Origin: a virus
Strand: one strand, 5' to 3'
IMG/VR virus record: IMGVR_UViG_3300033693_000005
Location: 2,055 to 66,054 of that record
Length of the DNA stretch: 64,000 nucleotides
In this document: positions 17,894-59,391 of the stretch, piece by piece
How the letters are laid out: each line of letters opens with the position of its first letter
How positions within the stretch are numbered: position 1 is the first letter of the stretch
Program-made: the position numbers and the translations under genes
Notes under the pieces: model-generated
Seen by the model: only the letters and a program-made list of their open reading frames with translations
Databases searched by the model: none
What the model was told of the DNA's origin: nothing

Positions 17894-18211
17894 TTACACC
17901 CCCAGTAAGTTTAATATTGTATCTTCCAATTCTGATATTCTTTCATCTTGAGAAGGATTACTTGGTGTTTGTTCCTCTAGCTGCCCTTGTTCAAATAAAA
18001 GATAAAAGTTATTATTTATATAATCTTCAATATTAGCTCTATTCACTAGTTTAACTTTAACCTCATCATATTTGTATTGAGTTACTAGATCACCTTGTTC
18101 ATTTTCTACTTGTTCTTCTGTTATATTGTCTCTTAAAAAGTATTCTCTAACCTTGCCTTGCTCTTGTCTTAATTCTACTTTTTGTGGGTTCTTATGACTT
18201 GTTACTTGCAT
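17894..18211 (-). CDS. tail-fibre assembly-like protein preceding XkdX
   Basis: C-terminal ERISELEDTILNLL coil and position upstream of XkdX. Confidence 0.55.
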   Translation of the reverse strand: MQVTSHKNPQKVELRQEQGKVREYFLRDNITEEQVENEQGDLVTQYKYDEVKVKLVNRANIEDYINNNFYLLFEQGQLEEQTPSNPSQDERISELEDTILNLLGV

Positions 18212-18234
18212 ATACCTGCTCTCCTTTCATATTC

Positions 18235-18915
18235 CTATTGAATAAATTTCTTATAATAATTAAATAAATTGTTTGTATTGCAATTTTCTAGTACTTTATC
18301 TATACTGCATTTTTCTATATTAATTTGTTTTTTATTTTTACCATGACCTTTGTAATAAGTACCTAATTTATATATTCTAGGTATGTTTGTTTTTCTTGCT
18401 AAACCTTTTTTAGACATAGCATAATATTCTTTATCTTTAAACTTACAATATAAAGGGGTTAGGTTATCTTTCCATGAATTAAATCCATAAGGTACAAATT
18501 GAATATTTTCAACAATATACCCTTTATTAGTATCTATTCTGTCTACAGAAATAGCATATTTTAATTCTTTATTATGCCTTATATAGCTTTTCCATAATTT
18601 TAAAAGTAATTCAGTATTCTCATTACATAAATCAGCATACTCTAGAGCATTAAGGAAGGGCATTTTATAATAATGCCCATATCTCATTTTTATTGTACAT
18701 CTAGTTAGAATACCCGAATGTTTTTGCATTAAATTCTTTGCTAAATCTCTTGGTAAATTTAAATATTTATACATATTTTTTCGTGAAGGGAGTCCCCTGT
18801 CTCTAAATTCTGCCCTGAAAATATGGTAAGGAACATTTACTTTTTTAGCCATACCTTTTAGAGTTATCTCATTACGATAATATTTGTCAATAAGTTCTTC
18901 ATTTAAATAATCCAA
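18235..18915 (-). CDS. HNH-like homing endonuclease with N-terminal HTH
   Basis: SVDRIDTNKGYIVENIQFV...N motif. Confidence 0.7.
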   Translation of the reverse strand: MDYLNEELIDKYYRNEITLKGMAKKVNVPYHIFRAEFRDRGLPSRKNMYKYLNLPRDLAKNLMQKHSGILTRCTIKMRYGHYYKMPFLNALEYADLCNENTELLLKLWKSYIRHNKELKYAISVDRIDTNKGYIVENIQFVPYGFNSWKDNLTPLYCKFKDKEYYAMSKKGLARKTNIPRIYKLGTYYKGHGKNKKQINIEKCSIDKVLENCNTNNLFNYYKKFIQ

Positions 18916-20181
18916 TTATGACCTCCCCATTAAACGAGAACCAATACCACGAGCAGAAGCAGCAGCGGAATCATACAAAGCCCAAGCAGCCAACCCAGCC
19001 CGAGAAACATCAGTCCAATACCCGCCAACACGAGCAACCCTATCTCCAGTATTTTGATAATAGTAATCACAGTAGTAACTACTAGAAGAACCATTTAATC
19101 CTGTAGGAAGTGTAGATAAACCCATTTCATTATTTAAAATTTGACCACTACCATAACCATTACTAGAAGGAAGTGTTCTACCCAACGAACTATAAGGCTC
19201 ACTAAATAAATTAGACTGAAAATCATTATTACTAATATACGGTTTATTATCTCTAATATTAATCCCATCTACAAATTCCCATATATTCCCCCAATAATTT
19301 TCTATCCCTCTATAACTAAATGGATAAGTAGTAGAAGCTCCTGTAGCCCCATTTTCTGGTGTGATACTAACTTCACCACTCTCATTACCTAAACTAGTAG
19401 TGTGTCCTGTATTTTGACTGTGATTACCAGAACCAGAATCTAAGTTAGTTATTCCTGTACTTAAAACATTTTGAGAATTAAAATCAGCATATTCTATATA
19501 AAATAATAAATTGATAGCTTCTCTAGCAGTATAGTACTGTAAACTCCAACCAGAACCTCTATTTTCAGCTAACTGTCTAGCTTCTTCTATATCTAAATGA
19601 CTACTGTTTCCAGATATAGGTTGAAACCCAGCAACAGAAGCCATAATATCATTAGCATAATCGTAAGTTACTCCATCACCTGCATAACTTCCAGCACTAG
19701 CATCATATAATGTAGCTTCAAAAGCTCCAATATATAAGTTTTCGTATTCACCCTCATCACTTTTAAAAGCTGGGTATAATTCAAAACCATCTCGTTGTAT
19801 ATCAGATACTAGGTATATAATCTCAGTGTCAGACAGTCTATAAGCTTTCCAATAAAACTGTGGTATTTCTACCATTACCTGCCCATTACTACCATCATAA
19901 GCAAAAGTAGGATCACCATAGTAAGCGTTTACAGTTAAATCATCTGCTAAGTTACATCTTCTCATATCTTGCCAGGGACTAATAGTATCAAAATCAGACT
20001 GAATTACATCATCTCCAACTCTTTCTACAACAAAATCACTGCCTGTGTCTGTTACTTTAATTCCTACAACTCCTGCTGGGAATGTAGCTACACCTTCTAA
20101 TATAGTAAAGTTTTCTCTTATCTGGTCTAAATCAGCCCCAACTGGATTTGTATCTTTAGGTACATTTGGATCATAAACCAT
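18916..20181 (-). CDS. tail fibre / receptor-binding protein with C-type-lectin (Mtd/FGE-like) fold
   Basis: YIGAFEA, GIENYWGNIWEFVDG, C-terminal RVGGYW...AG....GIGSRL. Confidence 0.75.
   Translation of the reverse strand: MVYDPNVPKDTNPVGADLDQIRENFTILEGVATFPAGVVGIKVTDTGSDFVVERVGDDVIQSDFDTISPWQDMRRCNLADDLTVNAYYGDPTFAYDGSNGQVMVEIPQFYWKAYRLSDTEIIYLVSDIQRDGFELYPAFKSDEGEYENLYIGAFEATLYDASAGSYAGDGVTYDYANDIMASVAGFQPISGNSSHLDIEEARQLAENRGSGWSLQYYTAREAINLLFYIEYADFNSQNVLSTGITNLDSGSGNHSQNTGHTTSLGNESGEVSITPENGATGASTTYPFSYRGIENYWGNIWEFVDGINIRDNKPYISNNDFQSNLFSEPYSSLGRTLPSSNGYGSGQILNNEMGLSTLPTGLNGSSSSYYCDYYYQNTGDRVARVGGYWTDVSRAGLAAWALYDSAAASARGIGSRLMGRS
18934..19032 (-). other. DGR-like variable region (VR)
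   Basis: only 6 A in 99 nt of coding strand; codons at expected variable positions end in T (NNT). Confidence 0.65.
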
Positions 20182-38305: not shown

Positions 38306-39631
38306 TTATTCCATATTCATAATTTCTTTTTTTGTTAAGTCTCTAGTACTAGGATGTTTGTGATTCGTGACATCTTGAAAAACTCTATAATGTATTCCAA
38401 ATCTTTTAGCTACCTTTTTCTTAGTGAAGTCATTATTTTCATAAACTTTATAAGCTTTTATGCACAAGTCTTTAGGATATTCTCCTACCTGCTTTATACC
38501 CTCTCTAACTTTTTCTTTAAAACGACATATTTCTGGCATATTTTTTGTACTCCAGTGTTTATGCTTAGCTATTTTACTCATGGTACTTCTCCCAAAAGGA
38601 AAGTCTTTACTAGCCTCAATAAAAGTTATATCATTTTGATAATAATAGATGTATGCTTCTAAACATTTCTTTCTATCTGTTTTATCACCTCTTGAAGCAC
38701 TTCTATCCTTATTTTTAAAACCCTTTACTCGTTCATCTAGAGGCATATTTTCAGTACTCCAATGATTGTAATGTATTATTTTACTCACTGTATTTTTCTT
38801 CACACCTGTTCTCTTAGAAACTTCTATTTGACTAAGTCTTGAATTAGCATATAAGTAATAAACTTCTAAACATTTCTTTTTAGAGTATTTACCTACATTG
38901 TTCTTTAATTCATTAGGTATATCATCTTCTCTACAAAAAGCAGGCATATTCTTTGTAGACCAATGAGTATGGTTTAATATCTCCAGCACTGTCGCATAAT
39001 TCATAGGAAAGTGTTTTGCTACTTCTGACTTCGGACATTTATTATCTTTCCAGTACTTATAAACTTCTAAACACTCATGTTTAGTATATAAACATCCGCC
39101 CGAGTTGAAGCCACCTTTATTCTTACCTTTTTTCAACCTACAGAACTTGGGCATATTCCTAGTTGACCAATGCTCGTGATTAACTATTTTTCTAACTAAT
39201 GCTCTTCCAACATTATACTCATCAGCCAAACTCCTTTGATAAATATCAGAAGTATGGTAAGTATAGTATATATTCATACAATCATTTTTGGTTAAGGTTA
39301 CTGTATTATTATTTTCACCCCTTTTATAGAGAAAGCTTAAATCTCCTTTAGTTTGGTTGTAACCTTCATAATAACTATTAAATAAATCCATTATGTAGTA
39401 TTGTTCGACTCTAGACAAGTCTTCAACAGGGATATCCTTATCTACAACAACCATGTCAAAAACTTCTTCCCCATACTTATTAAATGATCCTTGTAAGTGG
39501 GAGTTCCTGTGCTTATCCTGCCTTAGTTTACTAAAATGATTAATTATCCTTCTTTTAAAATCAATAGTTTGTCCTATATAAACTTTACCATTAACTCTAT
39601 TTACTATTTTATAAATTACTCCTGTTTCCAT
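38306..39631 (-). CDS. GIY-YIG homing endonuclease with five tandem HTH-like repeats
   Basis: VIYKIVN...VYIGQT..RR...H; repeats ending HWSTxNMP. Confidence 0.8.
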   Translation of the reverse strand: METGVIYKIVNRVNGKVYIGQTIDFKRRIINHFSKLRQDKHRNSHLQGSFNKYGEEVFDMVVVDKDIPVEDLSRVEQYYIMDLFNSYYEGYNQTKGDLSFLYKRGENNNTVTLTKNDCMNIYYTYHTSDIYQRSLADEYNVGRALVRKIVNHEHWSTRNMPKFCRLKKGKNKGGFNSGGCLYTKHECLEVYKYWKDNKCPKSEVAKHFPMNYATVLEILNHTHWSTKNMPAFCREDDIPNELKNNVGKYSKKKCLEVYYLYANSRLSQIEVSKRTGVKKNTVSKIIHYNHWSTENMPLDERVKGFKNKDRSASRGDKTDRKKCLEAYIYYYQNDITFIEASKDFPFGRSTMSKIAKHKHWSTKNMPEICRFKEKVREGIKQVGEYPKDLCIKAYKVYENNDFTKKKVAKRFGIHYRVFQDVTNHKHPSTRDLTKKEIMNME

Positions 39632-58919: not shown

Positions 58920-59150
58920 TTAGCTATTTTCTGTAGATTTTCCATTATTCATCTTTTTCCTCCTAACTTTCTCTAATGTGTTTTCTTTCTCTTTTAACTT
59001 ATATTCTAACATAATATTCCTGTATCTTAATTCTGAATTATCTTGTATTCTATCAACTAAGATAACTAATAAGCCAAATGTTATTAAAAATAGTATATTT
59101 TCCATTATTTGTCTCCTTTCACTTAAATACCCTTCTACTATATTATACAC
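58920..59150 (-). CDS. membrane-anchored hypothetical protein
   Basis: TM plus coil; true start probably MENILF. Confidence 0.45.
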   Translation of the reverse strand: MYNIVEGYLSERRQIMENILFLITFGLLVILVDRIQDNSELRYRNIMLEYKLKEKENTLEKVRRKKMNNGKSTENS

Positions 59151-59170
59151 GAAAAGTAGTGAAATTTCAA
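59142..59170 (-). promoter_or_regulatory. sigma-A-type promoter (class I motif)
   Basis: minus strand CCTTGAAA-17 nt (..TTTTCGTG)-TATAAT. Confidence 0.75.
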
Positions 59171-59184
59171 GGGTTTTATGTAAA

Positions 59185-59391
59185 TTAATTTAAAATAATT
59201 GTTCCTAACCAGTTTGCTAAGTAAACAAGTCCTATAAGAAACATTAACCACTGTGTAATTGTTATAAAATCATATACTGCTGACTGTTTCTCAAAAGGTA
59301 AACTCCAGTAAAGAGCATGAAAGAAATAAAATACAAACAATGATGCTATAAGTAATACAAATAAAACTGTTAATCCAGTTAAAAATTCCAT
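59185..59391 (-). CDS. membrane protein
   Basis: two TM segments. Confidence 0.6.
   Translation of the reverse strand: MEFLTGLTVLFVLLIASLFVFYFFHALYWSLPFEKQSAVYDFITITQWLMFLIGLVYLANWLGTIILN

Follow-up and report, generated by a model that had tools for sequence, protein, structure and literature searches.

In the prototype diversity-generating retroelement (DGR), that of phage BPP-1 (mtd-avd-TR-brt), the variable region (VR) lies at the C-terminal, C-type-lectin-fold tip of the phage receptor-binding protein, the differences between template repeat (TR) and VR are confined to adenines and involve Asn (AAT) codons, and the 3′ end of the VR differs from the TR at fixed positions (IMH versus IMH*). 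A 3′ IMH and a hairpin downstream of it are reportedly required in cis in the BPP-1 model, a requirement said to go back to Doulatov 2004 and Guo 2008/2011. Avd is common in DGRs and not universal. The Thermus aquaticus protein TaqVP (PDB 5vf4) is a cellular protein, no phage fibre, and still has its DGR. In epsilon crAss-like phages, whose DGRs have a TaqVP-like receptor-binding target, the intactness of the reverse transcriptase (RT) varies among close relatives, the RT being 'fragmented or absent in many' of them (PMC11054128); an endonuclease gene in place of the RT goes unmentioned in that paper, and HNH occurs 0 times in its text. Remote DGR targets of Legionella and Treponema have a VR without TR or RT nearby, the matching TR and RT being located elsewhere in those genomes (PMC5758913). 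Since DGR surveys begin with the RT, fibre genes that have lost their DGR go uncounted; RT-less targets are uncatalogued in such surveys (PMC8144416), and the routes by which a DGR is switched off are little described. Free-standing phage homing endonuclease genes (I-HmuI/NUMOD-type and HNH-type, with intronless homing) show presence/absence polymorphism at one intergenic slot and occur as identical alleles in divergent flanks, a short flank travelling with them. A literature search for endonuclease genes replacing DGR cores found no paper.

We analysed a stretch of 64,000 nucleotides (the window) from an IMG/VR contig of 66,187 nt, which is rated 53% complete and carries genes for terminase, portal, tape measure, helicase, polymerase and RNR. 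Its tail-fibre gene resembles the BPP-1 target in the position of the VR within the fold, in the adenine-only differences from a template, in the TR and RT found directly downstream in intact relatives, and in the fixed differences between VR and TR at the 3′ end. In contrast to BPP-1, the window has neither TR nor RT and carries an HNH-like gene (HNH-1) there instead, Avd was not found even in the record of the intact relative L001, and the fold is nearer to TaqVP than to Mtd. Unlike the Legionella and Treponema targets, this VR has no matching TR and RT in the 66-kb record and is truncated at its 3′ end, and it differs from the epsilon crAss-like cases in phage group and habitat. HNH-1 shares with free-standing homing endonuclease genes the polymorphic slot, the identical alleles in divergent flanks and the short flank moving along with the gene; it differs from them in replacing a functional cassette rather than standing between two genes, and in having no clear catalytic motif. 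We consider it likely that the VR is an orphan, a recent fossil left after a DGR cassette was replaced by this HNH-like gene. The orphaned-DGR state at the fibre belongs to a known kind of system and is, as a state, new to the literature that we could reach.

The adenine-poor fibre end and its template

The fibre gene belongs to a family of more than 1,228 homologs, none of which bears a Pfam name, and searches of Pfam and NCBIfam with the fibre protein gave no match. The initial annotation had pointed to an adenine-poor end of this gene, and recounting the 99 nt at 18934-19032, which encode the peptide RVGGYW...GIGSR, returned the same six adenines (A=6, C=19, G=35, T=39 on the coding strand). 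The binomial probability of six or fewer adenines in 99 nt is 1.5e-10, the rest of the fibre gene being 32.7% A, and across the 66,187 nt of the record no other 99-nt stretch has a plus-strand T count (equivalent to coding-strand A) of 12 or below. None of its 33 codons ends in A, compared with 119 of 382 elsewhere in the gene, 24 of the 33 end in T, which is the commonest base, and Arg is encoded by CGT or CGG within the stretch and by AGA in the remainder of the gene. GC content is locally 53% against ~31% for the genome; the depletion is specific to adenine and no GC effect. The 33 codons are A-poor as had been claimed but are not the final ones of the gene, since the five codons LMGRS are still to come.

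The C-terminal 250 residues were modelled with a pLDDT of 94.7 (AlphaFold2, 94-sequence alignment), and Foldseek on this domain found TaqVP (5vf4) as the best structural match (E 4.7e-9, probability 1.0, 18% sequence identity), followed by Mtd (1yu0, probability 0.96); FGE was also matched. The C-type-lectin fold proposed at first is thus reproduced by the model, in which the VR sits at the C-terminus in a ligand-binding fold typical of DGR targets. The N-terminal part of the fibre is modular: the protein has 526 aa in L001 (9686-11266), 627 aa in L119 (98-1981) and 421 aa in the window (18916-20181), and homology of the window fibre to those of L001 and L119 begins only near window residue 38, which suggests that different anchor domains are joined to one C-terminal lectin domain.

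Relatives of the window carry two types of template, A and B. Type A (TR_A) fits the VRs of L001, L094, L002 and L121; as a template for the window, the TR of L001 was rejected for its poor fit, with 24 non-A mismatches. Type B (TR_B) is present as an 83-nt stub in L112 (L112:321-403) and in its full 109 nt in the intact type-B DGR of L119 (L119:2059-2167), where a spacer of the L001 type and then the start of the RT follow. Compared with the L112 stub, the window VR differs at 24 of 29 adenine sites and at none of 54 non-A sites (Fisher p 2.6e-16). Compared with TR_B of L119 over positions 1-101 (19035..18935 in the window), 28 of 34 adenine sites differ, and the sole non-A difference is a variant present in the L112 stub; window core positions 102-109 diverge from TR_B, 4 of the 8 differing at non-A sites. 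All ten AAT positions of the recovered template read TAT, ACT, GAT, GCT or GGT in the window, as expected from the initial description of NNT codons. The VRs of the window, L001 and L002 vary at codon positions 1-2 of NNT codons, and across the window, L001, L002, L093, L094, L100, L112, L117, L119, L120 and L121 the template-adenine codons differ and the flanking codons are conserved. The A-poor fibre end is a true variable region of a DGR, which adenine-specific mutagenic retrohoming wrote from a type-B template, so that what was first read from base composition now rests on adenine-only mismatches to a relative's template together with the TaqVP/Mtd-like fold. Because the differences from TR_B over positions 1-101 are confined to adenines, save the variant of the L112 stub, the window VR has not drifted since it was written. 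A TR fitting it was absent from all 80 RT-linked IMG/VR loci, and exact-pattern scans of IMG/VR and GTDB genomes for the TR_B core gave 0 matches.

Several template adenines that lie in scaffold codons are G in every VR examined, with both template types (L112:321-403, L119:2059-2167 and the L001 TR were compared), the changes being ACT to GCT, AGC AGG to GGC GGG, AGG to GGG, and TTA to TTG. A to G makes up 16 of 24 changes in the window, and this excess reflects either strong selection after mutagenesis or a misincorporation bias of the RT.

The slot downstream of the fibre gene

The earlier finding that TR, avd and RT are missing holds when extended to the 66,187-nt record. A sliding comparison that tolerated changes at adenines, run along the two strands of the record, returned only the VR itself and a repeat finder returned nothing, and the copy differing only at A positions that was to be sought in this genome was found in relatives instead. 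A search of the record with PF00078 (RVT_1) gave 0 matches at E<=10, and tblastn with the L001 RT matched only a common 3′ tail. One candidate, an RT remnant in the C-terminus of HNH-1 (tblastn E 0.004 against the RT C-terminus), was rejected, the match being due to bases common to the right boundary and the DNA alignment giving it no support. PF05635 (Avd) had no match in the window record nor in that of L001, and the DGR family here may have no need of Avd, or may use an accessory protein that escaped recognition.

The intact arrangement is seen in L001, an IMG/VR contig whose fibre gene is 81% identical to that of the window. The fibre gene is followed there by a 60-nt spacer, TR_A, ~190 nt, a 332-aa RT (RVT_1 E 3.8e-17; motifs IGNYISQ and YMDD) and a 105-aa gene overlapping the RT end; all 25 mismatches between TR_A and its own VR fall at adenines, and 0 of 74 non-A sites differ. 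L094 and L119 have the same layout, and every DGR-bearing relative has its DGR at this site, with the fibre gene on one side and the 105-aa gene on the other. Since an RT stands directly downstream of the fibre gene in 13 of the more distant loci (fibre 26-49% identical), and TR stubs are present in L112, L100, L117 and L120, a DGR at the fibre slot is the ancestral state. The lineage's DGR is a compact, apparently Avd-less cassette (spacer, TR, ~190 nt, 332-aa RT) between the fibre gene and the 105-aa gene. A distant member of the fibre family in L007 and L008 (L007:5692-7092; the L008 record has 56,720 nt and is rated 81% complete) has a VR-like C-terminus followed directly by unrelated genes, and the whole record has no RVT_1 match, so that this fibre is another candidate for an orphan target.

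In the window the slot is filled by HNH-1 (Table 1). Aligned by blastn with L001, the window matches at 20064-18956 (85%) and again at 18236-16553 (94.6%), and between these flanks lie 719 nt in the window, with HNH-1, against 1,361 nt in L001. All blastn alignments to gene ends of the DGR type stop at 18935. Fibre proteins end in CFA(K/R)(S/N) where an intact or stub TR lies downstream, and in LMGRS in all HNH-1 loci. The left joint removes the last 8 nt of the core common to VR and TR (positions 102-109), which are part of the only GC-rich segment of that core; within this segment A in the TR corresponds to G in the VR at all loci, a fixed difference that would be the analogue of IMH versus IMH*. 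L119, L112 and L001 have a hairpin 3′ of the VR; the window lacks it, the stop codon of the fibre gene being followed immediately by the HNH-1 ORF. On the right side, a six-locus alignment shows identity resuming at one and the same place in RT, HNH-1, HNH-2 and HEG-3 loci. The 105-aa gene that follows has no Pfam or NCBIfam match, and its homolog also stands behind the endonuclease genes of L002, L093, L100, L112 and L117. The replacing role of the neighbouring HNH-like gene had gone unnoticed in the initial annotation, of whose alternatives the fossil is the better supported.

Table 1. Features of the fibre locus in the window, and content of the slot behind the fibre gene in the window and its relatives.
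Feature	Locus	Position	Strand	Remark
Tail-fibre / receptor-binding gene, DGR target	window	18916..20181	(-)	ORF, 421 aa; phrog_5302 'tail protein', E 2e-79
C-type-lectin-fold domain (predicted), C-terminal, bearing the VR	window	18919..19668	(-)	residues 172-421; AlphaFold2 + Foldseek
Variable region	window	18935..19035	(-)	101 nt kept of the 109-nt core common to VR and TR; by comparison with TR_B (L119:2059-2167)
Replaced 3′ gene end	window	18916..18934	(-)	codons LMGRS + stop; moves with HNH-1; left joint 18934/18935
HNH-1, 226-aa HNH-like (homing-endonuclease-like) gene	window	18235..18915	(-)	in the spacer+TR+RT slot; replaces L001:11227-12587
Right boundary common to all slot contents	window	18212..18236	(-)	upstream of 105-aa gene; last bases of relatives' RT ORF
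Conserved 105-aa gene, right-flank anchor of slot	window	17894..18211	(-)	homolog directly after RT in L001 (12613..12930) and L094
Slot content: TR_A + RT	L001, L094			
Slot content: TR_B + RT	L119			
Slot content: HNH-1	window, L093, L116, L002/L095, L121			
Slot content: 83-nt TR_B stub + HNH-2	L112	L112:444-1115		HNH-2, 223-aa gene with Pfam HNH domain PF01844
Slot content: TR stub of ~26-28 nt + HEG-3	L100, L117			HEG-3, 240-266-aa NUMOD1 / I-HmuI-like gene; PF22083/PF07453
Slot content: none	L120			TR_B cut after second Trp codon, joined to 105-aa gene via GGAAT microhomology

DGR loss in this clade is recurrent, since relatives fill the slot differently, with HNH-2, with a NUMOD-type gene or, after a clean deletion, with nothing; the HNH-2 state and the deletion state are each based on one short metagenomic contig. 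The stub in front of HEG-3 (L100:566-1366 in L100) is of type A in L100 and of type B in L117, and both stubs are cut at the identical template position. Three of the loci, L093, L094 and L112, come from one metagenome (Ga0209300), so that DGR-bearing and endonuclease-bearing alleles coexist. The samples of the clade are from subsurface, shale and groundwater, and the nearest named relatives are Halanaerobiales MAGs. The 5′ end of the ENA contig L117 (L117:1-80) was left out of the analysis: its first 78 nt duplicate a segment from within the contig's HEG-3 gene, joined to the VR, and this end is probably an assembly chimera via a 9-nt common word.

Putative nuclease character and mobility of HNH-1

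HNH-1 matches two PHROG profiles over residues 103-169, phrog_3322 endonuclease (E 8.7e-8) and phrog_3118 HNH endonuclease (E 3.2e-5), and shares a 22-residue match with HEG-3 (E 8e-4). It has no Pfam or NCBIfam match, a sequence search of the PDB returned only chance matches to HisF, and tblastn against GenBank phages gave no match. Its motif reads VDRID...N, in which VDRID stands where the first histidine of an HNH motif is expected, so that HNH-1 is a putative nuclease.

The slot is polymorphic among close relatives, holding the RT, HNH-1, HNH-2, HEG-3 or nothing, and HNH-1 is found with both VR types, as HEG-3 is with both stub types. For example, HNH-1 and the 105-aa gene of the window and L093 are 100% identical over 800 nt, beside fibre genes that are ~85% identical, and L002 and L121 likewise carry identical HNH-1 alleles beside diverged fibre genes (fibres of such HNH-1 pairs are ~80-90% identical). 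These identical alleles in divergent flanks fit homing with a short co-converted flank and ordinary exchange of fibre modules equally. The single right boundary of the three endonuclease genes also leaves the two on a par, as cassette exchange through flanking homology accounts for it as well as independent homing does.

In more distant phages, homologs of HNH-1 (41-44% identical) occupy the same position behind fibre ends that are still A-poor, a pattern that calls for recent invasions on several occasions or for rewriting in trans that still goes on. In the short contigs L122 (2090-4672) and L125 (1-2166), the order is a fibre gene (44-51% identical), the HNH-1 homolog (41-44%) and a ~110-aa gene; the fibre ends are VR-like, their final 150 nt containing 17 and 27 A, and no RT was seen in these contigs.

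The window genome carries other endonuclease-type genes as well, since a 441-aa ORF on the minus strand (38306-39631) matches GIY-YIG/HNH homing-endonuclease PHROGs (E 1.7e-25). This ORF holds 3-4 diverged copies of a 50-57-nt unit (repeats at 38523-39206).

Fossil, fibre exchange or rewriting in trans

In the history that we favour, the DGR cassette (spacer, TR and RT) of the window's lineage has been exchanged for the 226-aa HNH-like gene, with one crossover on the left, within the VR at its 3′ end, and one on the right, at the region upstream of the 105-aa gene. The VR would no longer be rewritten in cis, because the template, the RT and the full 3′ end of the VR (presumably the IMH) are gone, and the receptor-binding specificity at the fibre tip would recently have become frozen. 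Truncation of the VR end would abolish retrohoming, if the IMH and hairpin play the part here that they have in BPP-1. Endonuclease homing, and not general recombination, would have been the driving force of the exchange.

The same end state could have been reached by ordinary homologous recombination, in which a DGR-written fibre segment was imported into a backbone already bearing HNH-1 and no homing took place; HNH-1 may then be no selfish element and instead a DNA-binding gene resident in that backbone. We regard this as the less probable course, yet one with several observations on its side. Fibre genes are mosaic over their whole length, the homologs of HNH-1 in more distant phages are in the same position, all slot contents share one right boundary, the nuclease motifs of HNH-1 are weak, and the 18 nt to its left encode an ...RL... 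end like the wider family consensus, as if derived from a donor fibre gene. What weighs against an exchange of fibre segments alone is the company that HNH-1 keeps: HNH-2 (PF01844) and HEG-3 (PF22083/PF07453), both clearly of endonuclease type, occupy the same slot behind truncated TRs, which points to mobile endonuclease genes as a class, and the type-A and type-B stubs in front of HEG-3 end at the same template position.

Continuing diversification of the VR in trans is considerably less probable; its source would be a DGR in an unsequenced stretch of the genome, in a co-infecting type-B relative (L119-like) or in the host. In the window the final 8 nt of the VR/TR core have been replaced, as has the whole sequence 3′ of them, hairpin included, and these 3′ elements are reportedly needed in cis in the BPP-1 model. 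The zero non-A drift of the window VR and the A-poor fibre ends kept by distant loci of the HNH-1 family would agree with ongoing rewriting, and a source could be sought in the part missing from a record that is only 53% complete, in the intact type-B DGR phage (L119) from related samples, or in the DGR-plus alleles that share metagenome Ga0209300 with HNH-plus ones (L093, L094, L112); the BPP-1 DGR is able to act in trans from a plasmid (PMC5758913). Such a source has to be set against 66 kb without TR or RT, against the empty exact-pattern scans of IMG/VR and GTDB genomes for the TR_B core, and against the location of the DGR at this very site in each relative that has one. The initial annotation had left the choice between rewriting in trans and a fossil open; the TR and RT at the same site in relatives, the HNH-like gene in the slot and the removed 3′ end of the VR favour the fossil.

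The remaining explanation, which attributes the low A content to chance or to acquisition from a GC-richer genome instead of to a DGR, has next to nothing left in its favour beyond the raised local GC, and is refuted by the adenine-only mismatches to the relatives' template, in line with the A-specific depletion, the prevalence of T and T-ending codons and the hypervariability at NNT codons among relatives.

With the orphan VR read as a recent fossil, the locus becomes part of a natural series within one phage clade, comprising two intact template types, three endonuclease-type replacements and one clean deletion. Hypermutation of the receptor-binding tip has been lost repeatedly in this series, often to mobile endonuclease genes; the frozen tip remains recognisable, and the lost template can be recovered from relatives. 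When TaqVP-like fibres are annotated, a C-terminus that is poor in A and rich in NNT codons is a reliable sign of past DGR activity, even without an RT. Two questions are made testable, namely whether endonuclease genes target DGR cassettes and whether an orphan VR can be rewritten in trans.

We put forward, as a speculation more doubtful than not, that homing-endonuclease-type genes specifically parasitise DGR cassettes, cutting the TR-RT module or the homing signal and replacing it through repair from an endonuclease-bearing genome. The recurrence of three endonuclease genes and a deletion in one clade fits a conflict of a general nature, in which elements of two kinds, selfish or domesticated, are opposed to each other. 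If true, phage populations would contain 'mutator' (DGR+) as well as 'frozen' (endonuclease+) fibre alleles as a standing polymorphism, and in a stronger version co-infecting relatives that are DGR+ may still rewrite, in trans, those frozen alleles whose VR end is intact (L112 or L100 type).

The comparison with public sequencing runs over this stretch used Logan contigs only. A contig of run X4 breaks at 18944, coinciding with the first difference between the window and L093 (18945), and a strain mixture suffices to explain it. In X7 HNH-1 is uncovered and X5 holds a contig with a diverged VR; with the X4 break these fit co-occurring alleles, and none of the three is used as evidence here.

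Elsewhere in the window, a ~60-nt element containing CCTTGAAA ... GTGTATAATA is present in three copies, two direct and one inverted (1438-1496, 2697-2756 and 59134-59195), and looks like a promoter common to both divergent transcription arms.
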